Of a DNA stretch of 64,000 nt, positions 11,486 to 61,654 are shown in pieces. The translations under genes were made by a program, and so were the position numbers. This DNA is from a virus. Lineage: Duplodnaviria; Caudoviricetes. The notes under the pieces were generated by a model that was not told the DNA's origin, did not search any database, and was given only the letters and a program-made list of their open reading frames with translations. Every line of letters starts with the position of its first letter. The stretch's first letter is position 1. The DNA is taken from IMG/VR virus record IMGVR_UViG_3300025401_000012; one strand, given 5' to 3'.

Positions 11486-11487
11486 TA

Positions 11488-39043: not shown

Positions 39044-39060
39044 GATTGCCCTCGATATGT

Positions 39061-39068
39061 TATTTATC
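39061..39068 (-). promoter_or_regulatory. T4-like late promoter (GATAAATA) for the erpA-giant fibre unit
   Basis: 17 nt upstream of ATG 39043. Confidence 0.6.
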
Positions 39069-39102
39069 AAAGGCTTTTTATAATCTTAATGTAAATTAAA
39101 TG

Positions 39103-39108: not shown

Positions 39109-39113
39109 CTAGC

Positions 39114-39401
39114 ATGTACTTGAGCATAGAATATCAACAAACACAGCACATACGTGTGAGCAAACGCGGTAACTATCATAGTTATTTTCGTAAAAAACGT
39201 ATTGTGATTTTTAGTTGCGATTGTTGTCAGGGAATTTTTAAACGAGACAAAGGAGACATAGATCCTAAACGTTTAGATAATAACTATTATCATGTATGCG
39301 GCAACTGCGATGCTAAAAAGTTTGCCCAAGAAAAAGGCGTAGAAGCACGTAAAGTTTGGGATATGCCAGTTAGCAGTCTTAAGACGCTAGACCAATTCTA
39401 G
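39114..39401 (+). CDS. Small Zn-ribbon-like protein
   Basis: CDCC...CGNC pairs; 95 aa. Confidence 0.7.
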   Translation: MYLSIEYQQTQHIRVSKRGNYHSYFRKKRIVIFSCDCCQGIFKRDKGDIDPKRLDNNYYHVCGNCDAKKFAQEKGVEARKVWDMPVSSLKTLDQF

Positions 39402-44762: not shown

Positions 44763-45890
44763 TTAATTTTGATCAAAATATTTAGGGTCTAGATCGTATA
44801 GTCTACTTAAACTTTTACGCCAATTATTGCCTCTTATAGCATCTAATTTATTTAATCTGTCAATCCACGATAACGATGTCTCGTTGTTTTCCATAATTGA
44901 ATTAATTAACGTAACTATTGACCACTTAGCATCTGAATCTGGCAATGATATAATATATGAGTGTAGCATATTAAAATGTTGTTTTGGAAAATTTAAAGTC
45001 GATAGTTCTCCCCATACATTTTGATTCATGAATACTTTATAGTTATTGTCTAAACCCCATTGAATTAAATCGCCAACATACAGAATATTATGTATGCCTA
45101 TTGATGCACCTATCCTTAGAATAATATTATTTAAACCAGAATTTTGGTAGCTTAATAAATTCTGTTCAACTTCTAACCAATTTGCTCCGTATCGTGTGTA
45201 TTCAAAACATTCCCCAATAGCATCGATACTAATATTAAATGCTACTTCGTAAAAATTTTTCCAAATATTAATCATCTCTTCGGTGAATCTAAAAGTACCA
45301 TTAATTGAATATAGCACTCTTATAGTAGACGGATCTCGATGATTTTTAAGTATATGATTAAGAACATTAATATGATCGCGAGTCATTAAAGGTTCTCCGC
45401 CATTAAAATAGATTTGTTTTACATGACTCACATCGATATTTTCAAATAATTTATTATTTTTTGTTTTTTTAATATTTGTATTTTGTACGTTTCTCCAGCC
45501 TAGTTTAAGTTCATCTTCTAACCAAGCCGAGCTATAATGACCTCCGCACATTATACATTTTAAATTACAAATATTGTCGCAGTTATAATCTAATTTTTCT
45601 AATTGTACTTTGATTGGATATTCAGTTAATAATGGCCATCTAGAAGTTCTTTGGTTAGGAGATCCTATTTTTTCTGAATCTTTACAATACTTACATTCAT
45701 TAGGTAATTCTCCGGTGTTTAAATAAAACTGTCTAGATTTTTCTAAATGTGAATGATCCATGCTAATCGTAGATAATGGTTCACTTAATTTTGCTACACA
45801 ACAATGAGCAATTCTTGTAGTATTTTGATCTTCTTTTTCTAAAAAAAGTCCAGTAAAAAGATCCGGGCAATAGTTTTTATTATTTTGCAT
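44763..45890 (-). CDS. Radical SAM protein with N-terminal Cys (twitch/SPASM-like) domain, subfamily A
   Basis: CNLKCIMC, NGGEP; N-terminal C...CC...CKYC. Confidence 0.88.
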   Translation of the reverse strand: MQNNKNYCPDLFTGLFLEKEDQNTTRIAHCCVAKLSEPLSTISMDHSHLEKSRQFYLNTGELPNECKYCKDSEKIGSPNQRTSRWPLLTEYPIKVQLEKLDYNCDNICNLKCIMCGGHYSSAWLEDELKLGWRNVQNTNIKKTKNNKLFENIDVSHVKQIYFNGGEPLMTRDHINVLNHILKNHRDPSTIRVLYSINGTFRFTEEMINIWKNFYEVAFNISIDAIGECFEYTRYGANWLEVEQNLLSYQNSGLNNIILRIGASIGIHNILYVGDLIQWGLDNNYKVFMNQNVWGELSTLNFPKQHFNMLHSYIISLPDSDAKWSIVTLINSIMENNETSLSWIDRLNKLDAIRGNNWRKSLSRLYDLDPKYFDQN

Positions 45891-45898
45891 GTAAGTAA

Positions 45899-46612
45899 TT
45901 AAGATTTAATTAATTTTTTAAAGCTATTTGCTACCAATTTATTAAAAAACAACTTAGGAGCACCATGAGAAATTATGTGAATTCTTGGAGTATTGCTATT
46001 ATTCCAAACACTATGTAAATTTCCTATATCTACTAAACACGAATTTCCTGTTTCTTCAAAAGGAACGTATCCTTTACCCTCCATATTAAAAATACATCCT
46101 TTGGGATTATTCAATGCAATATTAATAGGAGAGAGAAAATGTTCACTTCTGTCTCGGTGTGGTAGTATGTATCCCTGTGGATCTAGCCACATAAATCTTA
46201 TTCGCTGAGTTGGTGTGTGTGGGAAAAAATTTTTAAAATATTCTGTAGTGACAGGGCATAAATCGGCTACTTTAGTCCATTTATATTCAATATCTTCCAT
46301 ACGTTTATTTGCATTTTCAGGGTAGGCAGTATAATAATCTGTTTTATTCCATTCTTCCCCGTAAATACAAAGGCTTTTCCAACCTAAACTATCTGGACTC
46401 CTGTGTACTATAAACATATCTTTTATAGCAAGGGCTTCTTCAAGCATTTCCTTATAAGGAACATTTGGCAAATCTAGTGGAAGATACGGCCAACCACTGT
46501 TATGAATGATCCAATGCCCTAGTTGCTCATCCTCAAAATTAGGTACTATTTGATTTTTAAAATCAAATGTCCAAGGAGCCTCTTGAAAAAAATCTACAAT
46601 TTTATTATTCAT
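45899..46612 (-). CDS. 2OG-Fe(II) oxygenase, Asp/Asn beta-hydroxylase-like
   Basis: RIRFMWLDPQGYILPHRD (HxD), INIALNNP, HSVWN...PRIHII; start moved to ATG 46612 (ATGA overlap). Confidence 0.75.
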   Translation of the reverse strand: MNNKIVDFFQEAPWTFDFKNQIVPNFEDEQLGHWIIHNSGWPYLPLDLPNVPYKEMLEEALAIKDMFIVHRSPDSLGWKSLCIYGEEWNKTDYYTAYPENANKRMEDIEYKWTKVADLCPVTTEYFKNFFPHTPTQRIRFMWLDPQGYILPHRDRSEHFLSPINIALNNPKGCIFNMEGKGYVPFEETGNSCLVDIGNLHSVWNNSNTPRIHIISHGAPKLFFNKLVANSFKKLIKS

Positions 46613-47997
46613 CGAATAACACCGTAATGTGTCCAAGCAGAATTTGCCGCATTATCGCATCCGCCTAGATGTATACTTTGATTGTTTTCTATTAGATCTT
46701 TTAAAAAGTTTTTATATAAAGATTTTAATGCTGAAGGGGAAAAATTTCTAATACTTGCTGGAGTATAAAAACTATTGCTAAACCATATAAAATTATTACC
46801 AGAGTGGGATTGCATATCTGTTATCATTTCGCGATAATTTCCAAATAAATCAATATGCATATACTTGTGCGGCAATTTTTTATATTGATTCCATGTATCT
46901 AACCACAACGTTTGCCCACCAAACATATCAATAGTTTTATCCCATTCCGGTGTAAAATCTCTGTTTGGCAACCAGTTAGGTCTGAATGTAGAATCGATTT
47001 GTTTGTACTCGTTAATTTTTTCTAAGTAATTTGTACCGTCCCATGTTTCTACCAACCATTTTTTAAAATTTAACGCAGATTGCGAATAATCAATGTATAC
47101 CACTCTAGCAGATTTCCAGTCGGTTTTAGTTAATATTTGTATAGGTTTAAATCCGGCGGCAACGGCATATAATGTATCTAGTTTTGTATCTTGATTATAT
47201 GCAAGATTTGGTAAGTTAACTGGATCATTATTGAATACAAAAACAAGTGTGGTTACATTTTTATCAAAATTAGTCTCTTCTAGATATCGATATTGTCCGC
47301 CAGTAGGGCCAACTGGTTCAACAGTTATATTTTTTTCACCATTTAATATTCTTTCAAATCGAGTATCTTCTATATCTGGATATAAATGATATTTTTGATC
47401 TCGTACTTGCCTACTAAAATTACCTACAGCATGCCCTGAGGACAAAATAGAAGAAATAAAATCTGCTCCAGGACGTAATGAACCGTTATAAACTTGACTT
47501 GTATTTGTTGGTTTTAAATATGTTGGGGTATAATCGTCGTGAATATCTTCATTACTACGATCAGGTAATGCTAACATTTCTGAATTTGCTGTTCTGTAAT
47601 TTCCAAATACAGGACATCCTATTTCCTGCCATGTTTTAATATTAACATACAGTGCTTGATCGTGCAAATAAAAATATCCAGAAGGTTTATCTTCTAAAAT
47701 ATGTCCCACAAATGCATAGTTATTTTCCTGTGCTTCTTTTATTATTTGATGAACAAGCATGGGAGAATGTGACTGATATCCTAACGCAACTAAAAATAAA
47801 TGATCGGTATTCTGTGTCAATGCATCTGTCATTATCTTAGTAATATCATCCCCTTCTATTAAAATAGTTTCAGTGAAATTATTTCTACTATTGTTTAACG
47901 ATATATTAATACTGAATAAAGTTATATCTTTAACATGTTCTCGATAAGAAGATGATTTATGATTTAGCTGATTATATAATCCAAATGCTATTTTCAT
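46609..47997 (-). CDS. Two-domain hypothetical enzyme (possible GT-A-like N-half and SAM-binding Rossmann-like C-half)
   Basis: VGHILED...YLHDQALYVN and LYAVAAGFKP...VVYIDYS; start moved to ATG 47997 (ATGA overlap). The CDS is well supported; the function is weak. Confidence 0.6.
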   Translation of the reverse strand: MKIAFGLYNQLNHKSSSYREHVKDITLFSINISLNNSRNNFTETILIEGDDITKIMTDALTQNTDHLFLVALGYQSHSPMLVHQIIKEAQENNYAFVGHILEDKPSGYFYLHDQALYVNIKTWQEIGCPVFGNYRTANSEMLALPDRSNEDIHDDYTPTYLKPTNTSQVYNGSLRPGADFISSILSSGHAVGNFSRQVRDQKYHLYPDIEDTRFERILNGEKNITVEPVGPTGGQYRYLEETNFDKNVTTLVFVFNNDPVNLPNLAYNQDTKLDTLYAVAAGFKPIQILTKTDWKSARVVYIDYSQSALNFKKWLVETWDGTNYLEKINEYKQIDSTFRPNWLPNRDFTPEWDKTIDMFGGQTLWLDTWNQYKKLPHKYMHIDLFGNYREMITDMQSHSGNNFIWFSNSFYTPASIRNFSPSALKSLYKNFLKDLIENNQSIHLGGCDNAANSAWTHYGVIR

Positions 47998-48932
47998 CGA
48001 TTTTTCCAAATTACAATACTATCTAGTTCAACTGAATCTACAGTAGCATCAATTAATGATAACCAATCTATCAATTCTAAATCTAAAATATCCCCGATCG
48101 GGAATCGATTTACTGGTTTTCCGGATTCTAAATGTTGTTGGGTCCAGCTTGGATTTTCCATTACAGTTGCAAATATCATATGGGGATCTAACATAATATT
48201 AGGAGTCATGAATAAATTGCCAGTACAATCATTTGCAGATAGGTCGTCGTGTTCTAACCATGATTTAATTTGATCTTTGCCCTGTATATCCTCAGATAAC
48301 CATACGGTATGATGGAACCCATTTGTTTCAGGATTAAATATTCTATCAGTCAATCTAAGTTCGGCCCCATTACCAAATAGTGCATCTTTATTTTTAAATT
48401 CTTTACTGTCAGTGCATGCAATAAAATGAAACCATTTTCCTTTTATTAAATTAACGTTTTCAAGATAGCAATATGTAGATCTTTCTAGATCGTGTGTATT
48501 TTGATTTAATATGTTTACAGCTTTAAATGTATCTTCGCTAGTAAAACCTGTCGGCACAGGCATTCTACCAGAGTACCACTCTGTCGATTGGGTAGTAAAA
48601 TGTCGATGCCATGTATTTAAATGGGATTGTCTTAATTCAGTTGGATTTTTAATTAAATATTTCAGATCCGATAATTCTGTTGTATAATCTAATCCTAGAT
48701 TATTATGTAAAAAATTAAATCCATCATACAACCCTTGCAATAGTTCAACTGGAGCATCCATGTAATGTACTGCTTTGCACCCACCGATTCTTAAATTCCA
48801 ACCAATATCAGGCAATCTTTTAGATAATGCCAGCATATAATTTTTCCATTCTAATGCAAAATCTGTATCTAATAACTGCACATTAATTTTAGTTGTGCTA
48901 TTATCTTTACGTGTAAGATTATACGTTAACAT
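47994..48932 (-). CDS. Hypothetical protein
   Basis: 312-aa ORF overlapping both neighbours. Confidence 0.75.
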   Translation of the reverse strand: MLTYNLTRKDNSTTKINVQLLDTDFALEWKNYMLALSKRLPDIGWNLRIGGCKAVHYMDAPVELLQGLYDGFNFLHNNLGLDYTTELSDLKYLIKNPTELRQSHLNTWHRHFTTQSTEWYSGRMPVPTGFTSEDTFKAVNILNQNTHDLERSTYCYLENVNLIKGKWFHFIACTDSKEFKNKDALFGNGAELRLTDRIFNPETNGFHHTVWLSEDIQGKDQIKSWLEHDDLSANDCTGNLFMTPNIMLDPHMIFATVMENPSWTQQHLESGKPVNRFPIGDILDLELIDWLSLIDATVDSVELDSIVIWKNR

Positions 48933-50103
48933 CTACTATTTCCTTTATTGGTATAAATTTACTTAGAATTGGGATAGATTTAAGCAAACTTTCTTTTCTA
49001 TATATATCTGTATTATATAACATGTTCAAATTTTTTTTAATTTGTTCTTTGGAACTAGACCGACTATCCATAAAATTTAAAATACCGAGCATGGTATTTT
49101 TATATTTTTCACTCCATGAGTAAGTTTTCCATCTTTCTCTTATCTCTTTTTTTAATGATGCAGGAGCAGACCATAATGCCATATGTTCTGGCGAGTGTAC
49201 TATATTATTCCAGATAGAAAACTTTGGAAACTCTGTTTTAATTAATTCATGTACTGCGGGTGCTTCTAATGCATTTAACCAACTTATAGTAAAGTTAATT
49301 TGTATATTAATGCGATCGGCATATTCATAATATTGTTTCATATTGTGATATGTTTCTAGCCATTTTCCAGGATGTCTTAAATATTCATACGTTGCACCGA
49401 TACCATCGATGCTCAGCCCTATTCCAACAGATTTAAAACTAGTAGCAATTCTCTCTAATAACTCGGGAAAAAATAATGTGCAGTTGGTAGTCAGTGTTAG
49501 GTCGATATTTTTACTGTATCCCATATCGATTAATTCAGTTAATATAATATGCCATTGCTTAACATAAAATGGTTCACCACCGACTATTTCTAATCTAGTG
49601 AGTTTCCTGTACCAGTTATGTCTTTCGGTCCAAAGTTTTCCCATTTCATCCCCGCTTTGCCCTAATGGCATAGGATAACCATTGTTACCGGTTAAAATTT
49701 TAATTTCGTGTTGCCATTGGGTGCTATGACTTGGTGTACAACTACGGCATTTTAAATTGCAACTATTGTTAATAATTAACTGTAGTTCAGAAACACCCGA
49801 AGGCTCCTCCTCCCAATTTATAAGATCTTTTCGAATATTAGTATTATAAATTAATCTTTTACTTTGATACCCGTTATCCTCATCGGCCCAACACGTACTA
49901 CATTCTTCCGGGCGTTCATTACGTCTAAAACGATTACGCAAGTCCTTCATAAAACTACTATGCAATATTTCATCGGGAGTGCTAGTCTGCACATACATAT
50001 TATCTATGTAGCCTTTATATAAGCAACACGGTTGTGCTCTGCCATCTGGTTCATTACTAAACCCAGTCCACGGTATACTACATAGATTGCTAGGACAAGT
50101 CAT
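48919..50103 (-). CDS. Radical SAM protein, subfamily A
   Basis: CSIPW...PCC...CSTC; CNLKCRSC; VGGEP. Confidence 0.9.
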   Translation of the reverse strand: MTCPSNLCSIPWTGFSNEPDGRAQPCCLYKGYIDNMYVQTSTPDEILHSSFMKDLRNRFRRNERPEECSTCWADEDNGYQSKRLIYNTNIRKDLINWEEEPSGVSELQLIINNSCNLKCRSCTPSHSTQWQHEIKILTGNNGYPMPLGQSGDEMGKLWTERHNWYRKLTRLEIVGGEPFYVKQWHIILTELIDMGYSKNIDLTLTTNCTLFFPELLERIATSFKSVGIGLSIDGIGATYEYLRHPGKWLETYHNMKQYYEYADRINIQINFTISWLNALEAPAVHELIKTEFPKFSIWNNIVHSPEHMALWSAPASLKKEIRERWKTYSWSEKYKNTMLGILNFMDSRSSSKEQIKKNLNMLYNTDIYRKESLLKSIPILSKFIPIKEIVDVNV

Positions 50104-51329
50104 CTTTTACCTATTTCCATTGCTAAGTTAACTGATTTGTGTCTACGCTTACAGTATTGATCAAAAAATATATCTGAATCTTTTCTATATTCGGCATGTT
50201 TATTGTTTGTTAGTTTTGGATCTAACATATTTAAAATTCTAGGTATAACTTTCAATTCGGAGTCTGTTAGTTTATGTTCAATTGACGAAAAGAAATTAAT
50301 ATATTTTTTTTGATAAAATGTACGTTCGACATAGGATAAACATGCAAGACTTTGAAATTCTGGATATGTGGCAAAATTTATCGATATATATGGACGTTTA
50401 GTAATATTAAGAATATCTATATATAATTGATCTAATCCTATCAATGCTAATGCAGTTATAGTTGTACTAATACTAATATTAGCAGTTGTTTCGGCACAGA
50501 CACGTGATACATTGTCGAGCCACTGATTATATATCATGCCATCTCGGATGAATTCGGCAACGTCTCCTGCTGTTTCGTTACTTATGTTTATACGTACATT
50601 TGATAATTTATTAACACTATTAATGAACCTATCTATTATTGTCGGTTTTTGACATAAATTTGTGTGTATAACACATTCTATATTGGGATTGATTTGTCTT
50701 ATTTTTTCAAATGTTTTAAATGTATCTTCGTGCAATAACGGCTCGCCACCAGTTATCCGTATACTTTCTAACTCATCAGCTGATTCGTCAAACCAATTCC
50801 AAAACAAATCCATATCAACTGGAATATTATTATCTATTCCTCGTTGATAATGTAATTTTTTATCTGTTGTTAAACCGTTATAATTCCCATAACGATTGAT
50901 ATCGTTTTTCCATTCAGTACTAAAACTAGGACTACAATAACTACATGCTAAATTACATGTATTTTGAAATGCAAGTTCTAATGCTTTAGGTTTAAAAATA
51001 AAACTACGATTTAGGTAATCCTTAGCTTCGAGTGAATTTTTAAATGATAATGATTTTAATTCTCTGTCACTTGTTATTCCTTGATCTTCTAAATTCCAAC
51101 AGTAGTTACATTCGCTAGGCTTTTCACCCGATAACATTCTGTTTTGTTGATCTCGTTTGTCAGTCGGATTAAAAAATGTTACTAAACTTTCGCCAGGAGT
51201 GACCATAGGCGTATGATGGCATCCTGCCAACTTACTAGCATATAGCCAAATAGTAGCCTCGTGAAATTTAGCCAAGCATATTGTATTGCTAGTATTTTTT
51301 TTAATATTATTTAAAATTTCTTTATTCAT
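50100..51329 (-). CDS. Radical SAM protein, subfamily B
   Basis: CLAKF...GCHH...CNYC; CNLACSYC; TGGEP. Confidence 0.9.
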   Translation of the reverse strand: MNKEILNNIKKNTSNTICLAKFHEATIWLYASKLAGCHHTPMVTPGESLVTFFNPTDKRDQQNRMLSGEKPSECNYCWNLEDQGITSDRELKSLSFKNSLEAKDYLNRSFIFKPKALELAFQNTCNLACSYCSPSFSTEWKNDINRYGNYNGLTTDKKLHYQRGIDNNIPVDMDLFWNWFDESADELESIRITGGEPLLHEDTFKTFEKIRQINPNIECVIHTNLCQKPTIIDRFINSVNKLSNVRINISNETAGDVAEFIRDGMIYNQWLDNVSRVCAETTANISISTTITALALIGLDQLYIDILNITKRPYISINFATYPEFQSLACLSYVERTFYQKKYINFFSSIEHKLTDSELKVIPRILNMLDPKLTNNKHAEYRKDSDIFFDQYCKRRHKSVNLAMEIGKR

Positions 51330-52455
51330 TTGAATTTAAAATTTGAAATATTTCAGGAAATGTTTTTTCAAAATTTGTATTTCGAATATTATCTAAACTT
51401 TTTAACATTGTTAATGTTTTTTTAGAAGTTAAGTTAGGTTCTAAATAACTTTCTACAGAAGATTTATACTCATTTTTGATTGTATTCAAATTAACAACAC
51501 CTAACGGCACTAGTTGATCTATTAAATTAATGTTTCGCAACAATATTTTTAATTTTTGATTAGTATTCAGAACATCCACAGAGTAGTATGAAGGGCCAAT
51601 CAGCTTAGTCATAGCTAGTGTACAATTATTTAAATTATTATTACACCAATTACAAAATTCATAAAAATAATATACATTCATTACTGATAGTGTATAGTGA
51701 ATATAAAAATAAAAATTATTATTTTCTGGTTTTAAATTACTATATTTTATTAAATTATTTTTTAATTCACTCCAATCGCTACCATAACGTAAGTAATCAT
51801 TTTTTTCTTCAATGCTATCGATACTTACTCCTATAGTAATACGTTTAAATTTTGTAAAATAATAATTTATATTTTTCAATACAGTTGTACCATTTGTTAT
51901 AAAGGACAAAGAAATATTATCTACATTTGTTAATGTGGTCAGCCAATCAACAAAATCTATAACAGCTGGGTTAATAGTAGGTTCGCCTCCGTAAAAGGTT
52001 ATAAGAACAGGGTTGTTAGCTGTTTTTATTATATTTTTACAGATTTCTAATTTGATAGGACCCTGTTCAGTCAATTTGTTATAAACTTTTCTCTCGTCTG
52101 GATTTATAAAATTTAATTTTACAGCATCGCCTATCCACTGAGAGCTTGCTTCGACATTACAAGTTGTGCATTTTAAATTACATAAATTATCAACACATAA
52201 TGATATATCAATTACATTTTCAACAAAATTCATACGATGGGATATTGCAGATCCTGAATTTTCTAAATCGATACAATATTTACACCCCGATTCGACATCG
52301 AATTTTTCTAATTCTTTTTTATATAAATTCCAATTTTGTAAAATATTTAACGGCAATTTATGTTTAAAATAGCAACAAGGCGTAACATTATTGTGTGTAT
52401 CGATGTATACAGAATTTTTATAAGCGTTGCATTCTTTGAATCTAGTTAAATCCAT
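51322..52455 (-). CDS. Radical SAM protein, subfamily A (very AT-rich)
   Basis: C...PCC...CKYC; CNLKCTTC; YGGEP. Confidence 0.88.
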   Translation of the reverse strand: MDLTRFKECNAYKNSVYIDTHNNVTPCCYFKHKLPLNILQNWNLYKKELEKFDVESGCKYCIDLENSGSAISHRMNFVENVIDISLCVDNLCNLKCTTCNVEASSQWIGDAVKLNFINPDERKVYNKLTEQGPIKLEICKNIIKTANNPVLITFYGGEPTINPAVIDFVDWLTTLTNVDNISLSFITNGTTVLKNINYYFTKFKRITIGVSIDSIEEKNDYLRYGSDWSELKNNLIKYSNLKPENNNFYFYIHYTLSVMNVYYFYEFCNWCNNNLNNCTLAMTKLIGPSYYSVDVLNTNQKLKILLRNINLIDQLVPLGVVNLNTIKNEYKSSVESYLEPNLTSKKTLTMLKSLDNIRNTNFEKTFPEIFQILNSNE

Positions 52456-53641
52456 AAGAATCCTTTTCTAATAAATTATTCCATTCCGGAAAAACATTTT
52501 TAAACGATGTACGATTATTCTGATCTAACCAGTTATTATATTCTAATCCTTTTTGAAATAACTCAGGATCTCCTTTAAATTGACTAGACAAACTATTTAA
52601 TTGCCAAGAATTTAAATCTGTTGATCTATCTAATATAATATCTTTAAATTTATCAGGCAATACACTTACGGAGAGAAACGTGGGATCGTATACATAATTC
52701 ATATGAACATGCAATCCTCTGTCTTGCATAAATTTATTAAATTCGTTTACATAATAAACATTCATCCAACTAATTGTTTGACATACACTAGTTTCAATCC
52801 ATGAGTATGATTGCAACTTATCTAAGTTAGATATAATGGTACCCCAATTAGATCCTGCACGAATGTAATCATTTCGATCACCTAAGTCATCTATACTAGC
52901 AGTTATTTGGACCTTTTTAAAATTACTCCATAAGTCAATCAATTTGTCGGGCAAATTGGTCATGTTTATATTGTACCATAGGGTAATTTGTTTATTAAAA
53001 CCGCGCTTGATAAGTTCTTCTAAATACCGCCAATGTTTTTCTACCAGTGTGGGTTCACCACCGTTAACATAAATTAATTCAACATTCTTACTATGTTCAA
53101 ATAAGTCATCCCAAAATTCATCGCTTTCGGTCCATTCACTATTAATCTTTCTATCATAGTGTGTTACAAATTTTAACTCTTGTTGTAATTTCTGATAAGG
53201 CTGTATCCAATTTGTACTACTAGCAGGATTACAAGTTCGACATTTAAGATTACATAAATTACCAAGACGTAATTCTATAAATTTAAAATTAACAGGTATA
53301 GTGCCATCTTCTTGAGTAATAGCACGAGCCATGTCTTCTGTAAACCCTAGTTTAGTATTTTCTTCTATGCGTTTACTTCTAACACCATTGGCTTCTTCTT
53401 GAAAACAACGTTTACATGCCTTAGGTACAACATTGTTTAACATTTCTAATCTTGTTTCTTTATAATAGTCACTATTCATGATAGTATCTATTTTATTATT
53501 ATTAAGGTCTAGATATGTCAATGGATGATAGTTTTTTGCTCGGCTAGCAGCATTACGGTGATCGCTCACACAACAAAGTGTAGCACCACCATCAGGATGT
53601 GTTGCTAAATGTATCCACGGCAGTGAACAATATGTACTCAT
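52442..53641 (-). CDS. Radical SAM protein, subfamily A
   Basis: CSLPW...LCC...CKRC; CNLKCRTC; NGGEP. Confidence 0.9.
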   Translation of the reverse strand: MSTYCSLPWIHLATHPDGGATLCCVSDHRNAASRAKNYHPLTYLDLNNNKIDTIMNSDYYKETRLEMLNNVVPKACKRCFQEEANGVRSKRIEENTKLGFTEDMARAITQEDGTIPVNFKFIELRLGNLCNLKCRTCNPASSTNWIQPYQKLQQELKFVTHYDRKINSEWTESDEFWDDLFEHSKNVELIYVNGGEPTLVEKHWRYLEELIKRGFNKQITLWYNINMTNLPDKLIDLWSNFKKVQITASIDDLGDRNDYIRAGSNWGTIISNLDKLQSYSWIETSVCQTISWMNVYYVNEFNKFMQDRGLHVHMNYVYDPTFLSVSVLPDKFKDIILDRSTDLNSWQLNSLSSQFKGDPELFQKGLEYNNWLDQNNRTSFKNVFPEWNNLLEKDSYGFN

Positions 53642-55020
53642 AGACTATTCCACCATTTAATTAGGTTTTTATTTTGAGAATATATATCTTCTATGGTGTA
53701 TTTGTCGTTGCGTATAGTTTCAAGTCTTTCAAGCCAGTTCTTACCGTTCTTAGCAGCTTTTCTATATTCATTAGGATATGCTTCCTCATGAGTTTGTCTT
53801 GTTTTCATTGACTCTAGTGTATTGATTAAAGTCTGTTGTTTGTGTCCTGCTAAAGGTTTCATGTATACTAACAAGTCGTCTATCATATCATTTAGTATTG
53901 GGCGCGGCCATGCCATTGCTGTAAACATGATGTCAGCATGAAACGCAAACATTATTTTAGTTTCTATACGGACATCTAGTTCTTGACTTAGATCGAACAG
54001 CTCTTTGAGACTAAACATACCAGGACCAGTTATAGTTAAATCTATGATCATCTTGTCTTTGCCGCCAGGCAGAGCGAGACCTTGTTTAAAGTTATCTAAC
54101 CACTCATTCCATTTAAGACCTGTTCGGATATACTCTCCGATTTGCTCAGTTCCGTCTATACTAGCACACATCATCCAATCTTTAAACTTAGGCAAATATT
54201 CATACAAGTTCTTCTTACCAAACTGTACACGACTTAGATTACTGTTATAACGCATATAACATGTCTTAGCAGATCCGTTATTAACCATCTCCTCTAATGC
54301 CCACCAATGTATATCGTACATCAGAGGTTCCCCTCCAACCCAATACATTTCTTCTACAATACCTCGTTGTATAGCATCTTTAAATTCAGGTTCTACTACA
54401 GTACCTTGAAAGTCTTCCATGGCTGTTTTAATTTCAGGAATCATAAATGATTGATTTTTAGGACTCCACAGTCCATTTACTTTCTTTTCTGTTTCCCAAC
54501 TGCTGCTCAATTGTTCGCCACACATACGACATTTAAAATTACACAAGTTGCTAAATCTATAGTCAAAACTAATTGGCTCCATAGTAGTATAACCTGTATC
54601 GTCTGTGTTATCAAATGCTTGTTGTATCTTATCTTTGAACAAGTTTCCAGTAAACCATTGACGATATGTACTAATGCTTAGTAAGTCTTTGTTACATACA
54701 TCGCATTGTAGAATTTCTTCTCCACGCATTAGCTTAACGCGAATGTCTCGCATATAAGGACTATTCCAATGCTCTTTAAGACTAACTGGATTATAGTCAT
54801 CTAAGGCTGTTTTACTTTCAGTAACTTTGCCGTACTTGCTATCGTTACTACTATCAATGTATTGCTTTTGAAAACTATGTTCTTCACGGCTGGCGCAACA
54901 TAGCCTGCGTTCACTTTGTGGGCTAATATAAGTATGAGTCCACGGAGCCATGCAAAATGTTTTGTTAGGACTATTTGGATTTATACGTCCATGGTCCCAT
55001 ATAGGTATAATTTTAGACAT
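53638..55020 (-). CDS. Radical SAM protein, subfamily A
   Basis: CMAPW...LCC...CDVC; CNFKCRMC; VGGEP. Confidence 0.9.
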   Translation of the reverse strand: MSKIIPIWDHGRINPNSPNKTFCMAPWTHTYISPQSERRLCCASREEHSFQKQYIDSSNDSKYGKVTESKTALDDYNPVSLKEHWNSPYMRDIRVKLMRGEEILQCDVCNKDLLSISTYRQWFTGNLFKDKIQQAFDNTDDTGYTTMEPISFDYRFSNLCNFKCRMCGEQLSSSWETEKKVNGLWSPKNQSFMIPEIKTAMEDFQGTVVEPEFKDAIQRGIVEEMYWVGGEPLMYDIHWWALEEMVNNGSAKTCYMRYNSNLSRVQFGKKNLYEYLPKFKDWMMCASIDGTEQIGEYIRTGLKWNEWLDNFKQGLALPGGKDKMIIDLTITGPGMFSLKELFDLSQELDVRIETKIMFAFHADIMFTAMAWPRPILNDMIDDLLVYMKPLAGHKQQTLINTLESMKTRQTHEEAYPNEYRKAAKNGKNWLERLETIRNDKYTIEDIYSQNKNLIKWWNSL

Positions 55021-56533
55021 TTTGCCCTAGCGAATCATTTTTGATATCCCACCCATGTGCAACTTCATCGCTAACATAGCCAGCTTCTGTAGTAGCAGGA
55101 TCCCCTCCTAATACTAGTTCTCCTCCGATAAGTTCAATACTATCGATAAAGTCAACGAAATCTTGTGGAAATGTAGTTCTAAAGTTTTTACCTCTACGCT
55201 GATCGTATTGCTCATAGAAACTTCTAAAGTCATTGTATAACTTGGGTTGTTCTGCTGTATTACGGTGAGGAGTTTTAATAATATCTAGATAATCTATTAG
55301 ACGATTAATTTGATCTACTTCTCCCATGGTTAATATAGATTCGGACCATAGACCTCTATCAACCTTTTCACCTTCTGCTAGACGAGCATCTAACCAAGTT
55401 TGTAGTTTATTTTTATAAAATTGTTTCATATGATCTGGCAGTATAGCCGCACTTTGAAAACTAGGAAATCTCAGTATATTCAAACTCATAGTAGGACTAG
55501 TGGTTTGATGTTTACGTTTGAACGCTAGAACATCATCCATGAATTCGGTGATACTAGCAAGACAAAGGCTATTAATAGTCATCATCATGTGTGTAGATTT
55601 TACTCGACCCTCTGTATGCAGTCTGTCTAGATTATTCCACCATGTTGTATATTCCATACCATCTCGAATATATTCGCTTTGTACCCCGACACTTTCGTTA
55701 CTGGTATAAATTTCTAAATGTGGAATACTATGACTTAGTTCGATTAGTTTATCTAATATTTCTTGTTTAGGCACTAGATTACTATTAATGGCAAATCGCA
55801 TTTTCTTTCCACGAGCGGGGTTGTTCTTAAACCAGTCAAACAATTTCCATACACTTGGTGCCATTAAAGGTTCGCCACCTGTGATACGAATTTCTTCTAA
55901 ACTGTCTGCTAAGTCACTTTCCCACCATTTCCAAAATGCTTGTATATAAGGGTTGTCGTCTTCGTTCTTAGGACTTTCTGCCCATGGAGCAGTGTCCATA
56001 AAATGCCCGCGACCGTCACTAACAATATTAATGTATGGACCATTCTTTTTAATATCACGAACCCAGCTAGTACTAAATGCCGGATTACAATATGTACAGG
56101 CAAAATTACAAGTACGTTCAAAACTAATTTCTAATGTTTTAAGTGTAACATCGCTATCCCAAGGCATCTCGCTAGATGTTTTAATATCCTCATCGGAGTA
56201 GATATGTGTTTTAAATACACGATCGCTAACAGCATCTCGACCCATGTCTTCTACTTTCCAGCAGTACTCGCACTCGTTAGGTCGTTCGCCTTCTAACATT
56301 AGCTTACGCATTAGCTTTTTGTGTTGAGTATTGTGAATGGCACTTGGATTAGTTTCAATTTCTTTTATATCGATTTTATGTGCTGGCGGATGGTGGCAAC
56401 TAGTAGTTTGACCGTGCCCTAGCCAAATAGTAGCATTGTACCATTTGGCTCCGCAATATGTATCACTAATTGGATCAATAACTCTTAGTTTAAATTGTCT
56501 ATACGTTTCTTTTTTGCTGTAATTTCTAGCCAT
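55013..56533 (-). CDS. Radical SAM protein, subfamily B
   Basis: CGAKW...SCHHPP...CEYC; CNFACTYC; TGGEP. Confidence 0.9.
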   Translation of the reverse strand: MARNYSKKETYRQFKLRVIDPISDTYCGAKWYNATIWLGHGQTTSCHHPPAHKIDIKEIETNPSAIHNTQHKKLMRKLMLEGERPNECEYCWKVEDMGRDAVSDRVFKTHIYSDEDIKTSSEMPWDSDVTLKTLEISFERTCNFACTYCNPAFSTSWVRDIKKNGPYINIVSDGRGHFMDTAPWAESPKNEDDNPYIQAFWKWWESDLADSLEEIRITGGEPLMAPSVWKLFDWFKNNPARGKKMRFAINSNLVPKQEILDKLIELSHSIPHLEIYTSNESVGVQSEYIRDGMEYTTWWNNLDRLHTEGRVKSTHMMMTINSLCLASITEFMDDVLAFKRKHQTTSPTMSLNILRFPSFQSAAILPDHMKQFYKNKLQTWLDARLAEGEKVDRGLWSESILTMGEVDQINRLIDYLDIIKTPHRNTAEQPKLYNDFRSFYEQYDQRRGKNFRTTFPQDFVDFIDSIELIGGELVLGGDPATTEAGYVSDEVAHGWDIKNDSLGQNV

Positions 56534-58097
56534 TTAATTTCTCACATTCTAACCAATAAGGTTTCATTTCTGGGAAGGTTGTCAAAAAGTCTGTGTTTCT
56601 TCTTTGGTCGTATTGTTTGATAAACTGATAAAACTGTTTTCTATTAGTAATTAGTTGTTCATCACTAGTGCCTTCTTTCATCATGGCTAAGTTACGTTTA
56701 AGTTTTAAAATTTCGTGAGGTTTAAACCCTTCTAAAGTTTTTCCATAATCTGAAGCCTGCTCGTTCGCCTCCATAAATTCTACACATTCTTCTACCATTG
56801 CAATTAATTCTGGACTAGCATTTTTTACATCAAACCAATTAGGATAATTTAACAATGGAATATCAAAGAAAATTCTTTGAAATCGTTTTTGTTTGTACTT
56901 TTTATGTATAATACCATGTGCTTGTTCTTCGGCAGTAGATACTGGTGCAATTTCAAATTCTTGTTGATTACGCCCTCCGAATTCTTGTCTAAGTTCAAGT
57001 ATAAGTTGTAGATAACTATGCAAGCTAGGTATACTTAACAAATTAAATGTATTAATAAAACTAACAGTTGTATATCGTGTGGTGTTTAAAAATCTGCGTA
57101 TATTATCTAACATCAGTTTATAATTTAATCCTGTACGCATATATTCTGCTTGTGCGCCTGTACCGTCAAAACTAACGTATAACCAAAAATGTTTAAAACC
57201 TTTATCTACATACCAATGATTACCACTGTGTTCATTAAAGTTATCTTTATCTTCGTAAGTACGTATAACTTCAATAGCTTGGACTTTACTAATAAACCGA
57301 TCAAACAGTTTGGGATCTGGAGGACACATGTTGCTGGTGATGCTTAGTTCTAACTGTCCATGCGGATTTTCATTAACATAATCTAGTACTTTAAATGTAT
57401 TTTTATCCATTAGTGGTTCACCACCAGTCATACGAAATACACGCAAGTTTCGATATATGGTAGGCCACCATTTCCAAAAAGCTATTACATACGGATTGTC
57501 TTTATTAGCAGCCTCTATAGGCATATATCCTTTTTGTTTAAGACTAGTAATATCATTATGACCACCGTGATCGAATTTATAAGGACCAAATTTTTCTATT
57601 TCTTCTTCCCATGTTGTGCTGATATGGGGACTACAATACATGCATTTAAAATTGCAAGCACGATTAAAATTAACCTCTACATAGCGGGGAGTGATATTAA
57701 AATCAAAAGATTTACTCATTACTTCGTTATAATGAGGTTCAGCCCACCATTCACTAGACTTATAATGTCTGTCGCTTAGATTTTCTCCTTCTGCATCTTC
57801 TACACGCCAACAATAGCTGCAACCATCAGGCCTTTTTCCTTCGAGCATTTGTTTGCGTTCTTGTTTTTTAAAATTTGTATTGTGCAATGCGCTTGCATCA
57901 ATTACAAGTTCTTCCAAAGGAATAGGATGGGCTGGAGGATGATAACAACTTTGTGTAGTACCGTTTGTCAAATTAATACTAACCTGCAACCATTTAGCAA
58001 GACACATACTAGGGCTAACAGTATTCAATTTATCCCGCATGTCTTCCGCACGTTGGAAATACTCTGTGAATCCGTAATTCTTTCTTATTAATGTCAT
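56526..58097 (-). CDS. Radical SAM protein, subfamily B
   Basis: CLAKW...SCYHPP...CSYC; CNFKCMYC; TGGEP. Confidence 0.9.
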   Translation of the reverse strand: MTLIRKNYGFTEYFQRAEDMRDKLNTVSPSMCLAKWLQVSINLTNGTTQSCYHPPAHPIPLEELVIDASALHNTNFKKQERKQMLEGKRPDGCSYCWRVEDAEGENLSDRHYKSSEWWAEPHYNEVMSKSFDFNITPRYVEVNFNRACNFKCMYCSPHISTTWEEEIEKFGPYKFDHGGHNDITSLKQKGYMPIEAANKDNPYVIAFWKWWPTIYRNLRVFRMTGGEPLMDKNTFKVLDYVNENPHGQLELSITSNMCPPDPKLFDRFISKVQAIEVIRTYEDKDNFNEHSGNHWYVDKGFKHFWLYVSFDGTGAQAEYMRTGLNYKLMLDNIRRFLNTTRYTTVSFINTFNLLSIPSLHSYLQLILELRQEFGGRNQQEFEIAPVSTAEEQAHGIIHKKYKQKRFQRIFFDIPLLNYPNWFDVKNASPELIAMVEECVEFMEANEQASDYGKTLEGFKPHEILKLKRNLAMMKEGTSDEQLITNRKQFYQFIKQYDQRRNTDFLTTFPEMKPYWLECEKLNG

Positions 58098-58104
58098 TTA
58101 TTAA

Positions 58105-58677
58105 TTATAATCCTGTAATATAGAATTGAACAGCCAATGTAATTCTAAATTTATGATTTACGGGAGCAAATGCCTTATGTTTTATATTACTTGGAAATAG
58201 CACAATTCGATTTTGTTTAAATTCACATCTTTTAATTTCTTCATTTCGATTAGGTTCGTAAAATACCAAATCTCCATCGCTATCATTTACGAAATAAACA
58301 CATGTTAAACAATCATTATTATGATGATCAATATGCATATTAGCATCGTTTCCTTTTATAAGACAATTCCATCGCACTCCTTGTAATACCAACGGGTGTA
58401 TTGCTGGAATTTCTTTTGTAATTAAATCGGTAAATGCAAGATTAAAAGTTTTAGTAGTATGTAAATGATCTTCTAAAAAATGATTGTGTACATAGCTTCC
58501 GTATGTAAATGTAAATTCTTCTATATCATTTTCTGGAATGTATTTAAGTCCCCATGGGATAATTTTTGATTGCGATATGATATATTCTTCGACCCATCCA
58601 GGAAACGGATTGTCGATGATTATAATTTGATCGGCATCTGTTTTTATATTTTGTAAATTTGTTACCATTATGTCCAT
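58105..58677 (-). CDS. 2OG-Fe(II) oxygenase (prolyl-hydroxylase-like)
   Basis: MHID (HxD), TCVYFVN..DGDLVF, NRIVLFPSNIKH...RITL. Confidence 0.82.
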   Translation of the reverse strand: MDIMVTNLQNIKTDADQIIIIDNPFPGWVEEYIISQSKIIPWGLKYIPENDIEEFTFTYGSYVHNHFLEDHLHTTKTFNLAFTDLITKEIPAIHPLVLQGVRWNCLIKGNDANMHIDHHNNDCLTCVYFVNDSDGDLVFYEPNRNEEIKRCEFKQNRIVLFPSNIKHKAFAPVNHKFRITLAVQFYITGL

Positions 58678-59498
58678 AAACTTTGTCTAATTTTGATAAG
58701 TCGAATCATCATAGCTTCGTCTTCATCTTCGTAAGCCTTTTCAATCTTTTGAAGTAGCTTGTGAGCTTTATCGCTGGCTTTTTTAAGCACAGGATCTTTT
58801 TCGGCACCAAAACTTAGTCGACCGCCGTTGGCAATACGACTTGCTTCACATGCCGCAGTCCAGCCACTTGCTTCATAAGGGTCTGGACGATTACGATAGA
58901 CAGTAGTCCACCAAGTGTACAGCTCAATAATCTCTTTTGCGGCATTGGCTTGATAAGTTGGTTCAGCTTCAGATTTTTTATCATCATCCAAAAACTCTTC
59001 GTTAGTAAGAGTACTTGCCCATTTTAGATATTCTAATCCAGCTTCGGGACAGCGCCATGTGCGTAGGCGCAACCAGCCACTACGATACCAAGGAACATTG
59101 AACTTCTTACGCTCTTCATCGTTCCACATACAGTAATGCCACGCTTGCTCTACTTCAACGAAATCCACAAGCTCTTTAAAAAGACAAGGGAGAAACCGAT
59201 TACCAACGTCACACCAACTGCCAGGGCGGATATCACGAGGATCGGCAGTAAGAGCATGACTCTTACTAATCCAACGATTGTTGATGTAATATCTGACATC
59301 ATTTAAACGGTCCATAGGATAGTTTACAAAATTTTGTACTGCATCTAACGCTTCTTCGGCTAGCCAGTATCGAAAGTTGTGTTTCATTTGGGCAGTGGTA
59401 CGCCACTCATCCCATTCTTCACTAGTAGCCGCACTAAGTTTTTTAGTACCACGCAACCAATCTGCAAATTTTGAACATGACCAGTAATTGCTTCTCAT
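58668..59498 (-). CDS. Hypothetical Trp-rich protein
   Basis: 276-aa ORF, AGGA RBS, higher GC than its neighbours. Confidence 0.8.
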   Translation of the reverse strand: MRSNYWSCSKFADWLRGTKKLSAATSEEWDEWRTTAQMKHNFRYWLAEEALDAVQNFVNYPMDRLNDVRYYINNRWISKSHALTADPRDIRPGSWCDVGNRFLPCLFKELVDFVEVEQAWHYCMWNDEERKKFNVPWYRSGWLRLRTWRCPEAGLEYLKWASTLTNEEFLDDDKKSEAEPTYQANAAKEIIELYTWWTTVYRNRPDPYEASGWTAACEASRIANGGRLSFGAEKDPVLKKASDKAHKLLQKIEKAYEDEDEAMMIRLIKIRQSLWT

Positions 59499-59511: not shown

Positions 59512-60264
59512 TTAACTTAAAAGTTTTTTTGTTGAAGCGAAAAAAGATTTTACGTTTTTCACGTAATTTTTCATAACTAAATATCCCCACGCATTTGCCA
59601 TATATCTATCGTGCTCGTTTGCTGGCTCGACAATTAAATCTACTAGAAGATTTCTAGGGATTGGAATAAGTTGGCATATAGGGGTACCTGCTTCAATAAG
59701 GATATCGTCATTAAGTTTATGCCAGAATAGTTGAATATTTAATTCGTAGTATTTTGAACAATCGATAATACCATGTGCAGCTGTAAAAATATTATGGTCA
59801 GCATACGGCAACGGCATTTGTAAAAATACAATATCATCTGAACTAGTTATTCTCCATTGTGTATTAACCTTAACTAAACTCTTAAGTGAGTCTTCCCTAA
59901 TAGGACAAAATTTTGCCAATTGATCGTAGGAATGTTGTCCTATATAATTTGCATTAGCTTCCGCACCTTGTGGCATATTCCAAGCAAAACCAACTGGATT
60001 ATCGGCTCGAGTTTTAATAACAAAATCCATAGGAGCAGTAATAATAAACCCAGTTTTAAATAAATCACTGATACCTGGACATCGGTTAGTTCCGGCCATT
60101 GGATCAGTTATTTTTTTATTCGCCATTCTTTCTTTAAAATCTAAAGATGCGGCTTTGAACCAATCAAATCGATAATCTTGTGCTCTAATAATGGGATGTG
60201 CGAATTCAACTCCAGGAATGAAGTTTACAAACCTAACCCAGGGCTTTTTTTTACGAAAAAACAT
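59512..60264 (-). CDS. Hypothetical protein with RCPG motif, possible degenerate dUTPase-like fold
   Basis: TNRCPGISD; HGIIDC and AGTPICQLIP resemble dUTPase motifs 3 and 4. Confidence 0.6.
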   Translation of the reverse strand: MFFRKKKPWVRFVNFIPGVEFAHPIIRAQDYRFDWFKAASLDFKERMANKKITDPMAGTNRCPGISDLFKTGFIITAPMDFVIKTRADNPVGFAWNMPQGAEANANYIGQHSYDQLAKFCPIREDSLKSLVKVNTQWRITSSDDIVFLQMPLPYADHNIFTAAHGIIDCSKYYELNIQLFWHKLNDDILIEAGTPICQLIPIPRNLLVDLIVEPANEHDRYMANAWGYLVMKNYVKNVKSFFASTKKLLS

Positions 60265-61593
60265 TTATAATTTTTCACCTTTTGTAAAACCACGGAAACC
60301 TTTGAATCGAGGAAACCTGAGGCTATATGTGCCGTCTTGATTTTGTGTTACAGCATCTGCACGAACTTCAACAATATTTCCGCCAAGACTACTACGGCTA
60401 TTCCAAAAACTATCACGATCACTATCGGTAAAGCCACTGCCAACGTTGACTCTGATTCTTTTTCCATCATCTTCTCCTTCGCATACTAGCGCACCAAGTT
60501 TACCTACATTTCTGCCTGTACCTTCTTCTACGGCTACCACTTCAAGACTAACTTCAATAAAGGGCTTTAATTTCAACCAAGCCGCACTACGCTTACATTC
60601 ATAAGGAGCATCTGGGTCCTTAATCATAATACCTTCGTAACCACCATTAATTGCCTTTTGATTAATTTCTCGGAAACGTTTTTGACCTTCTTCTGTGTCT
60701 AAATCAACTAGCTCATTAGCAACATAGGTTACATTAGGAATCAATTCTTGATAGGTGTTTACCCAATGCTCAACCATCTTGCTGCGCAAACTCTGTGGCT
60801 TATTATAAATTCCTTGTTCAAAATCTGCTAATGGCATAACATCAAACAAGTTTAATACAGCATCACCTGCTTGTACATTATCTTTACGATGCACTTGTTT
60901 CATCAAGTCTTGGAAACTACTTGACATAATTTCGCCATCGAGCACGACATTTACATTTTTGTCTGTGCCTTTAGACTTAACTACATTTGAAATCTGTTCT
61001 GCTATGTGAGGGAAGTTAACAAGTTCCTTACCGTTACGACTAAACATATCGACGCGGCCATCTGCACGAACAATAGTGATAACACGAACCCCATCAAGTT
61101 TAACCTCAATAAGTTTTTTGCCCGAGACTTTATTTTCATGATTAGCACTATCGTGGGCAAGCTGGCAACCAAACACAGGAATACTGTAATCAGCATATTT
61201 TTTCTCTACTACTTTGTTAATTGTTTTTTCGCTTACACCACAGCGTAAGTCTTTGATTAGTATTCTACGATACCAACTGTTCCACTCTTTCTTAGTGGCA
61301 CTCTTCATCATTGTTTGAATCATGTCGCGAGCTGTATTGCCTGTGACATTGCGAGTTGTAAAGCCAGTAAGAGCGAGAGTAAAACTATCCCAAGGTAACC
61401 CAGTCCCGTCTTCATCTTTTTTCTCCGGTATTTGTTTAAGTCCAAAAGTAATCATTGGATCAAGGGCTAGGCGGCAACCTTCAAAAAATTCGTCATTACC
61501 TAACTCTGCTTGAGCAAGAATGATTTGTTCTTTATTCAAACGACTAGGATGATCTTCCAAAGAAGAGATTATTGAGTAGCAAGGATCGCTCAT
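60265..61593 (-). CDS. ATP-dependent DNA ligase (T4 gp30-like)
   Basis: EVKLDGVR (KxDG), LDGEI, YEGIMIK, WLKLK, OB-fold SLRFPRF. Confidence 0.95.
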   Translation of the reverse strand: MSDPCYSIISSLEDHPSRLNKEQIILAQAELGNDEFFEGCRLALDPMITFGLKQIPEKKDEDGTGLPWDSFTLALTGFTTRNVTGNTARDMIQTMMKSATKKEWNSWYRRILIKDLRCGVSEKTINKVVEKKYADYSIPVFGCQLAHDSANHENKVSGKKLIEVKLDGVRVITIVRADGRVDMFSRNGKELVNFPHIAEQISNVVKSKGTDKNVNVVLDGEIMSSSFQDLMKQVHRKDNVQAGDAVLNLFDVMPLADFEQGIYNKPQSLRSKMVEHWVNTYQELIPNVTYVANELVDLDTEEGQKRFREINQKAINGGYEGIMIKDPDAPYECKRSAAWLKLKPFIEVSLEVVAVEEGTGRNVGKLGALVCEGEDDGKRIRVNVGSGFTDSDRDSFWNSRSSLGGNIVEVRADAVTQNQDGTYSLRFPRFKGFRGFTKGEKL

Positions 61594-61625: not shown

Positions 61626-61654
61626 ATTATACAGAGTAATTATCAGTATGTCAA
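61626..61654 (-). promoter_or_regulatory. Sigma70-type promoter TTGACA-N17-TATAAT at the head of the ligase-radical SAM operon
   Basis: -35 at 61649-61654, -10 at 61626-61631; perfect consensus. Confidence 0.85.

Follow-up and report, generated by a model that had tools for sequence, protein, structure and literature searches.

The IMG/VR virus record IMGVR_UViG_3300025401_000012 (Duplodnaviria; Caudoviricetes) is represented here by a stretch of 64,000 nucleotides, which we refer to throughout as the window. Its minus strand carries an array of eight genes for radical S-adenosylmethionine (SAM) enzymes, named r1 to r8, which together cover positions 44763-58097, along with two 2-oxoglutarate (2OG)-Fe(II) oxygenase genes, oxA and oxB. 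The array lies in a single run of 15 minus-strand genes (61593-44763) with no gaps between genes; adjacent genes overlap by 4-16 nt or sit 0-13 nt apart, or overlap by 28 nt if oxA (the gene at 45899) is read from its TTG start. Read in the direction of transcription, the order is DNA ligase, a 250-aa protein, a 276-aa protein (u276), oxB, r8, r7, r6, r5, r4, r3, r2, u312, u466, oxA and r1 (Table 1). The 250-aa protein has no Pfam match, and u276 has no family match in Pfam, NCBIfam or PHROG searches.

The gap ahead of the ligase gene holds a promoter sequence (61654-61626) that agrees with the sigma-70 consensus at 12 of 12 positions, the best match within the 19.5 kb scanned. This promoter is of host type and probably drives the unit. 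At the other end, a hairpin likely marks the end of the unit; downstream of it come a second promoter-like site (44727-44699, 11 of 12 positions), an AGGAG motif and the TTG start of the next gene. The T4-type late promoter TATAAATA occurs three times in the window, which is below chance, and nowhere within the unit. The original prediction, made from the letters alone, had proposed a single tightly packed unit behind a sigma-70 promoter, and both the perfect TTGACA-17-TATAAT and the 4-16 nt overlaps agree with it, so far as layout can speak for the presumed transcription of the 15 genes as one unit. A 260-aa open reading frame (ORF) upstream of the ligase (62439-63221) matches the hidden Markov models of two gene clusters, c10 (E 1.7e-10) and the DUF6071-like c4 (E 3.6e-6). 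Because c10 and c4 flank related arrays in 10-17 other phage groups, the module may extend further upstream than was originally delimited.

Table 1. Features of the putative unit and of the adjoining Fe-S support genes, in the order of minus-strand reading (numbers beginning with L denote loci and contigs used for comparison)
Feature	Position	Strand	Evidence
Sigma-70-type promoter, TTGACA-17 nt-TATAAT, then GGAG and ligase ATG	61626..61654	-	Sequence read
ATP-dependent DNA ligase, first gene of putative unit	60265..61593	-	PF01068 E 1.5e-23, PF14743 E 2.2e-11
250-aa protein (phrog_7084)	59512..60264	-	PHROG E 1.8e-46
276-aa protein u276	58668..59498	-	Homologue 52% identical just ahead of array in L006
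oxB, 2OG-Fe(II) oxygenase, prolyl-4-hydroxylase-like superfamily	58105..58677	-	PF13640 E 2.4e-7, 32 bits vs cut-off 27; phrog_274 E 5.9e-27, phrog_81 E 7.6e-11
r8, subfamily B, core orthogroup	56526..58097	-	NF033640 290.4 bits; orthogroup 31 phage loci + 4 bacterial, support 0.95
r7, subfamily B, core orthogroup	55013..56533	-	NF033640 310.6 bits; orthogroup 37 phage loci + 3 bacterial, support 0.98
r6, subfamily A, core orthogroup	53638..55020	-	NF033640 306.5 bits; N-terminal Pfam SPASM match; orthologues 47-84% identical in most loci
r5, subfamily A, core orthogroup, top match to family model	52442..53641	-	NF033640 353.2 bits; orthogroup 47 phage loci + 3 bacterial, support 1.0
r4, subfamily A, accessory copy	51322..52455	-	NF033640 182.1 bits; orthologue seen only in L003 (52%), L156 (34%)
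r3, subfamily B, accessory copy	50100..51329	-	NF033640 240.9 bits; orthologues L001-L003 (64-66%), L156 (51%)
r2, subfamily A	48919..50103	-	NF033640 283.2 bits; N-terminal SPASM E 6.6e-7; clade 37 phage loci + 3 bacterial, support 0.88
u312 (312 aa), first gene of three-gene sub-module	47994..48932	-	22 homologues
u466 (466 aa), N-terminal GT-A-like (glycosyltransferase A) and C-terminal Rossmann (methyltransferase-like) folds	46609..48009	-	Predicted structure
oxA, Asp/Asn beta-hydroxylase-like cupin oxygenase, u466 partner	45899..46636	-	PF05118 E 4.2e-12, 46.6 bits vs 22.6
r1, subfamily A, last gene of putative unit	44763..45890	-	NF033640 187.5 bits; tree singleton
11-bp-stem hairpin without U tail, 3 nt past r1 stop codon	44734..44759	not assigned	Sequence read
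Fe/Mn superoxide dismutase	39379..39939	-	PF02777 E 4.9e-23, PF00081 E 1.5e-11
A-type Fe-S carrier (ErpA/IscA-like)	38720..39070	-	PF01521 E 6.9e-21

All eight radical SAM proteins match the NCBIfam model NF033640 (N_Twi_rSAM) from end to end with 182-353 bits, above a curated cut-off of 170 bits that none of 14 control genomes passed. The enzymes thus belong without exception to a catalogued family, and the idea that they form an unrecognised type has to be given up. The Pfam Radical_SAM gathering score (29.5 bits) is reached by six of them, r6 (20.6) and r8 (25.0) lying under it. Two sequence features on which the original prediction was built did hold: the CxxxCxxC and GGEP motifs are intact in all eight proteins (invariant columns C130, C134, C137 and G194-G195-E196-P197), and an extra Cys domain precedes the core. 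This domain has four invariant cysteines (C5, C24, C76 and C79 in the numbering of r5, from a 16-sequence alignment), arranged as C, x18-25, C, about 50 residues, CxxC, and kept in all eight copies as well as in 10 relatives from other phages and bacteria. Pfam SPASM (PF13186) is above its gathering score at the N-termini of three copies, within residues 5-110. Searched against PDB sequences, the full-length family profile reaches into BtrN's C-terminal twitch region (E 0.003), and a profile of the N-terminal domain alone found nothing. Four cysteines suffice for one auxiliary cluster, and the domain is therefore best taken as a twitch rather than a SPASM domain, apparently permuted to the N-terminus.

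We modelled r5 with AlphaFold (mean predicted local distance difference test, pLDDT, 84.6). The nearest solved structures to this confident model, found with Foldseek, are anSME, CteB, SkfB, EpeE, BlsE, AprD4, viperin and MoaA, with template-modelling (TM) scores of about 0.3-0.45 and 15-19% identity. The radical SAM clan of the model is clear, and none of these structures appears closely related to it. Since they include peptide-, sugar- and nucleotide-acting enzymes, they do not identify the substrate, and the earlier caution that the substrate could not be decided from sequence was well placed. Models for viperin, MoaA, QueE, NirJ, PapB, His-Xaa-Ser (HXS) systems and sactipeptide maturases all score far below their own cut-offs on the eight proteins. 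Membership of the viperin, MoaA and QueE families was rejected, with best scores of 41 bits against a cut-off of 180, 35 against 284 and 23 against 260, respectively. A place among the maturases of RiPPs (peptides made by the ribosome and modified after translation) was likewise rejected on score; the only Pfam and NCBIfam matches above cut-off were to radical SAM and SPASM.

The eight paralogues are ancient copies, only 17-33% identical to one another, and a tree of 374 family members divides them into two well-supported clades that coincide with the subfamilies first drawn by eye, A (r1, r2, r4, r5, r6; support 0.96) and B (r3, r7, r8; support 0.996). An r5 homologue is present at 61 IMG/VR loci, which cluster at 95% identity into 41 groups; in the 21-kb stretches that were fetched there are 3-10 radical SAM genes each. 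Orthologues of r5, r6, r7 and r8 are present in most of the 61 loci at 40-84% identity and mostly in the same order, their orthogroups spanning 31-47 phage loci each. The copies r1-r4 are sporadic across loci, and r1 has no close orthologue among those sampled. Sequences from Bdellovibrionota fall in each of the four core orthogroups and in that of r2, so that the paralogues must have split before the cassette spread. Comparison with the closest orthologues gave nonsynonymous divergence (dN) of 0.12-0.33, saturated synonymous divergence (dS), and dN/dS of at most 0.13 where computable (0.03 for r7 against L003). Such ratios point to purifying selection and therefore to working genes rather than decaying duplicates. 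The original prediction had seen one assembly line of eight enzymes. Conservation instead shows a core of four, and the array is better described as the core r8-r7-r6-r5 plus variable extras and an inserted glycosyltransferase/hydroxylase sub-module.

This sub-module consists of u312, u466 and oxA. Both oxygenases named in the original prediction were found again, PF05118 (oxA) and PF13640 (oxB) being above their gathering scores. Against solved structures, oxB gave chance matches only and oxA a weak match described as 'beta-hydroxylase' (E 0.04); oxA is 60% identical to a homologue in the matching position of L156. The two unknown ORFs once reported as interspersed among the enzymes have fared differently. 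One, u312, is still without a family: none of its 22 homologues has a Pfam domain, and an Atlas search gave no usable match. The other, u466, is now modelled as a GT-A-like domain followed by a Rossmann domain. For its N-terminal domain, Foldseek lists chondroitin synthase, LH3, COLGALT1, Mimivirus R699 and STIV A197; NNMT is listed as well. Matches in AlphaFold DB include clusters named glycosyltransferase 2-like (E down to 5e-19), and the C-terminal domain is shared with one cluster named 'aspartyl/asparaginyl/proline hydroxylase domain-containing protein'. Profiles of u466 gave nothing meaningful against PDB sequences.

Of 80 other viral contigs without radical SAM genes nearby, 68 carry u466 and oxA as a pair, so that the pair is an independent, widespread phage module. 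In these small contigs (L078-L155, for example L084:6600-8555) the order is reversed relative to the window and the neighbourhood is fixed. Homologues of u312 stand ahead of those of u466 and oxA in L156, L157 and two ENA contigs, and L156, a 293-kb lake contig, repeats the window's own order of radical SAM genes, u312, u466 and oxA. Both ENA contigs have u466 and oxA fused into 696-aa proteins, downstream of the u312 homologue and with a radical SAM gene two genes further; the longer contig then continues with an NDP-sugar (nucleoside diphosphate sugar) epimerase/dehydratase, a carbamoyltransferase and a protein of >1000 aa. The recurring order and fusion thus indicate a portable sub-module with a glycosyltransferase-like part, and the trio, as modelled, gives the window a link of its own to sugar chemistry.

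A broader link comes from the company that the family keeps. Among the 41 phage groups, the gene most often found near the array is c1, a protein of about 320 aa (40 groups), followed by a carbamoyltransferase (26), a UDP-glucose/GDP-mannose dehydrogenase (21), DUF6071 (17), an aminotransferase (10) and another PF13640 oxygenase (10). The c1 protein, with the signature 'IFFISY..NA ... VDGDN', aligns with the nucleotide-binding and DxD region of a glycosyltransferase family 2 (GT2) catalytic-domain profile (hhalign probability 58%, E 1e-4), and an Atlas search gave weak leads to glycosyltransferase families. Against a single GT2 sequence c1 was not significant, its profile found nothing meaningful among PDB sequences, and hhalign shows it to be unrelated to u466. 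We regard c1 as a likely GT-A glycosyltransferase on this profile evidence. Judged by its flanking genes, the window is nearest to the L006 contig (record G303), with which it shares u276, u389 and u486 and which carries c1 about 55 kb from its array. Three proteins of 1000-1300 aa (L008:16057-19392, L009:6396-10250, L027:17882-21205) end in one complete c1 domain and have six to eight partial c1 matches upstream of it, as if they carried degenerate glycosyltransferase half-domain repeats.

The family is also chromosomal. Of the 301 Bdellovibrionota genomes sampled, 79 have NF033640 above its cut-off, often in several copies, and two Bdellovibrionota metagenome-assembled genomes searched in full have eight and five copies. 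Four further genomes (G188, G251, G152, G172) each gave at least 30 first-look candidates, and all five scored in each genome pass the cut-off; the family may be greatly expanded in these predatory bacteria. The chromosomal arrays lie amid GT2 glycosyltransferases, a PMT_2 (GT-C) gene, an aminotransferase, an FAD oxidoreductase, c1 and more radical SAM genes, surroundings that are the signature of a glycan-building locus.

We therefore favour, with a probability of roughly 55%, the reading that the array is a multi-step pathway for tailoring a sugar (a nucleotide-sugar or a glycan), whose acceptor cannot be read from sequence. A glycan was among the candidate substrates of the original prediction, and that option gains weight because of the family's neighbours in both phages and bacteria and the GT-A fold of u466; sugar- or nucleotide-acting BlsE, AprD4, viperin, MoaA and BtrN are also among the nearest solved enzymes. 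Each r enzyme would use its CxxxCxxC cluster to cleave SAM, and the resulting 5'-deoxyadenosyl radical would abstract a hydrogen atom from the substrate, the N-terminal auxiliary [4Fe-4S] cluster serving in electron transfer or substrate handling. The quartet r8-r7-r6-r5 would carry out fixed radical steps (for example dehydrogenation, dehydration, epimerisation, decarboxylation or C-C coupling), the variable copies r4, r3, r2 and r1 lineage-specific extra steps, and the two oxygenases hydroxylations. The trio u312, u466 and oxA would then transfer or further decorate the product. The unit would be transcribed from the promoter at 61654-61626 and would draw its Fe-S clusters via a phage A-type carrier. 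We infer in this scheme the sugar substrate, the single reactions, the transcription unit and an acceptor, which may be a virion protein, the host envelope or DNA.

Several points weigh against a sugar pathway. The neighbourhood evidence is guilt by association, and much of it comes from elsewhere: the 64-kb window has no c1, carbamoyltransferase or UDP-sugar dehydrogenase, so that, except for u466, the sugar context is borrowed from relatives. Glycosyltransferase and sugar-nucleotide genes in the same unit are seen for the family at large, and in the window this comes down to the GT-A fold of u466, in a model of moderate confidence (pLDDT 65.5 overall, about 80 for residues 50-200, the first domain). 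The nearest solved enzymes equally include the protein- and peptide-modifying anSME, CteB, SkfB, EpeE and 8vpo cyclopropyl synthase, so a sugar substrate cannot be told from a peptide one by sequence and fold. Hydroxylation of proteins is what both oxygenase families are chiefly known for. Lastly, the literature searched yielded no NF033640 member with assayed activity.

The alternative that survives best, though we consider it unlikely, is that the radical SAM enzymes and hydroxylases modify side chains of a phage protein, such as a giant fibre or another virion protein, by crosslinks, epimerisations or hydroxylations. SPASM/twitch maturases modify peptides in such ways; the top structural and sequence neighbours include the enzymes just named, 8vpo being a RiPP cyclopropyl synthase, and PF05118 and PF13640 are typical protein hydroxylase families. 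A conceivable substrate is close at hand. Tail-fibre-like genes come after the array, together with a giant fibre-like ORF (24431-38716) of 4761 aa that has no Pfam domain and is 16.8% Thr and 11.8% Ser (28.6% Ser+Thr). The L006 contig (188 kb) repeats the order array-u389-u486-giant ORF, with a 3684-aa homologue (G303:C1:119184-130300) directly after the array that is 51% identical over residues 136-591. However, a complete 607-kb phage in which ten copies pass the cut-off (nine N-twitch genes at the array, one elsewhere) yielded no detectable homologue to the first 600 residues of the fibre. That makes the fibre a candidate acceptor and not a conserved partner, and the linkage to a giant fibre suggested in the original prediction extends to one close relative only.

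Nor does the array look like a peptide-maturation locus. An adjacent precursor peptide gene and a RiPP recognition element domain were both sought at the array and neither was found, although a precursor might lie elsewhere; there is no room for a small ORF, because the genes overlap or sit 7-13 nt apart. The absence of a precursor and of a transporter from the array had been observed before, and neither has since come to light there. For none of the eight enzymes did Pfam bring up a family beyond radical SAM/SPASM, and so no peptide-recognition domain either. The genes that regularly accompany the family encode sugar enzymes and glycosyltransferases; a substrate protein that recurs in the same way is not among them.

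Less probable again is that the array modifies nucleotides or DNA, making a hypermodified base or an unusual sugar that is put on DNA, with early expression alongside the ligase. The array is co-oriented with the ligase behind a host-type (early-type) promoter, a QueD/6-pyruvoyltetrahydropterin synthase gene lies nearby (41404-41889), a tailored sugar could end up on DNA, and the eight proteins have weak similarity to viperin, MoaA and QueE-type enzymes. Those scores are far under their cut-offs, however, and the linkage to DNA ligase inferred earlier proved not to be general, a ligase being near the array in only four of the 41 related groups. Pfam and NCBIfam scans of the unit found no transglycosylase, hydroxymethylase or base-kinase gene. 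The neighbours of the bacterial arrays, moreover, are GT2 and PMT_2 genes, whose families are known chiefly from the glycosylation of envelopes and proteins, and not genes for DNA modification. Finally, an enlarged HXS-type or other multi-radical-SAM defence or counter-defence system is very improbable and, for HXS, was rejected on scores: the weak matches to TIGR03978 (HxsB, 25.7 bits) and TIGR03977 (HxsC, 22.1 bits) fall short of the respective cut-offs, 370 and 268 bits, by an order of magnitude, all eight proteins pass NF033640 instead, and the Pfam and NCBIfam scans of the unit brought up neither a (His-Xaa-Ser)n protein nor an HxsA/HxsD-like gene.

Returning to the sugar-tailoring pathway, its most specific form would join it to the fibre: the phage would build a heavily tailored, undescribed sugar by a relay of permuted-twitch radical SAM enzymes and attach it to its own giant Thr/Ser-rich fibre via u312, u466 and oxA. 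This is a long shot. If true, it would mean hydroxylation-dependent virion glycosylation encoded by a phage, with new radical sugar chemistry, analogous to the glycosylation of hydroxylysine in collagen.

With two predicted [4Fe-4S] clusters in each of eight enzymes, a full set would need sixteen, and it is reasonable for the phage to bring a carrier of its own. The A-type Fe-S carrier and superoxide dismutase genes adjoin each other (38720-39939) in the stretch that separates the radical SAM unit from the giant ORF. The carrier likely supplies clusters to the sixteen sites of the array and the dismutase could possibly protect the Fe-S enzymes; the two may thus be a set, carried by the phage, that supports Fe-S enzymes in oxic water.

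Elsewhere in the window there is a proteostasis set (9206-12829, 18378-18815 and 63218-63805) made up of a ClpA/B-like double-AAA ATPase, ClpP (63218-63805), DnaJ, peptide deformylase and a Cpn10-like co-chaperonin. In a 169-aa ORF (19121-19630), the C-terminal half corresponds to no more than the beginning of the DNA polymerase III alpha NTPase domain (PF07733; positions 16-94 out of 260); the ORF may be a fragment or a split gene.

About 20 freshwater metagenome runs from 2017 contain the window's DNA at near-full coverage, and it therefore represents a recurrent lake phage. Cultured phage records hold no near-identical DNA, the matches there being distant and at protein level only (about 23% identity, to Ralstonia phage RsoM2USA and Vibrio phages). 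No RNA runs were listed for the array or for r5 alone, which says nothing on expression.

NF033640 is a large family with no known reaction, and many uncultured aquatic phages carry 3-10 copies of it at a locus. The quartet shared between phages and bacteria, the constant company of sugar genes, and the fused GT-A/Rossmann/hydroxylase partner make it more approachable, and these three results suggest specific substrates for testing as well as bacteria that can be cultured and used for genetics. Should the sugar reading hold, the loci encode new radical carbohydrate chemistry and may encode an unrecognised phage means of decorating virions, host envelopes or DNA.

How does the array compare with known systems? 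The members of NF033640, a family described as 'twitch domain-containing radical SAM protein', have the same N-terminal four-Cys module, CxxxCxxC and GGEP motifs, and the window holds eight of them in two deep clades. The canonical twitch/SPASM enzymes (BtrN, anSME, SkfB, CteB, EpeE, BlsE, AprD4) have the same barrel and the same kind of auxiliary module, whereas in the window's enzymes this module is permuted to the N-terminus, without a peptide-recognition domain or a second SPASM cluster. The pathways of BtrN and AprD4 (aminoglycosides) and BlsE (blasticidin S) place radical SAM enzymes beside aminotransferases, dehydrogenases, carbamoyltransferases and glycosyltransferases, as do NF033640 neighbourhoods. 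Each of those pathways, however, makes do with one or two radical SAM enzymes where NF033640 loci have 3-10, and no antibiotic-type scaffold genes were seen at NF033640 loci. For the u466-oxA pair, the closest parallel is with collagen LH3 and the Mimivirus collagen-modifying enzymes, which likewise combine GT-A, Rossmann accessory and Fe(II) oxygenase domains; in some contigs the phage counterparts are fused. Here, though, the oxygenase is of the Asp/Asn beta-hydroxylase family PF05118 and not a lysyl hydroxylase, and with a TM score of about 0.2 from a moderate-confidence model the likeness appears to be one of architecture only, not of membership.

The nearest precedent for the array as a whole is in T4-like phages. 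Nishimura and colleagues described T4-like environmental viral genomes in which an A-type Fe-S carrier occurs alongside as many as 12 radical SAM genes, the latter number in TARA_ERS488813_N000010, and counted these as Fe-S-related auxiliary genes with no family or pathway assigned (Nishimura et al., 2017, mSphere; PMC5332604). By description, those phages resemble that of the window in being large, uncultured and T4-like and in having multiple radical SAM genes, an A-type carrier and ClpP; they are marine, whereas the window comes from freshwater metagenomes. Multi-copy radical SAM arrays with an A-type carrier in T4-like phages were thus already reported in 2017, and because the same array type is in the literature, the window adds little as a discovery. 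What is new here is the structure of a core quartet with accessory copies, the breadth of the family in glycan loci of Bdellovibrionota, and the u312/u466/oxA sub-module.

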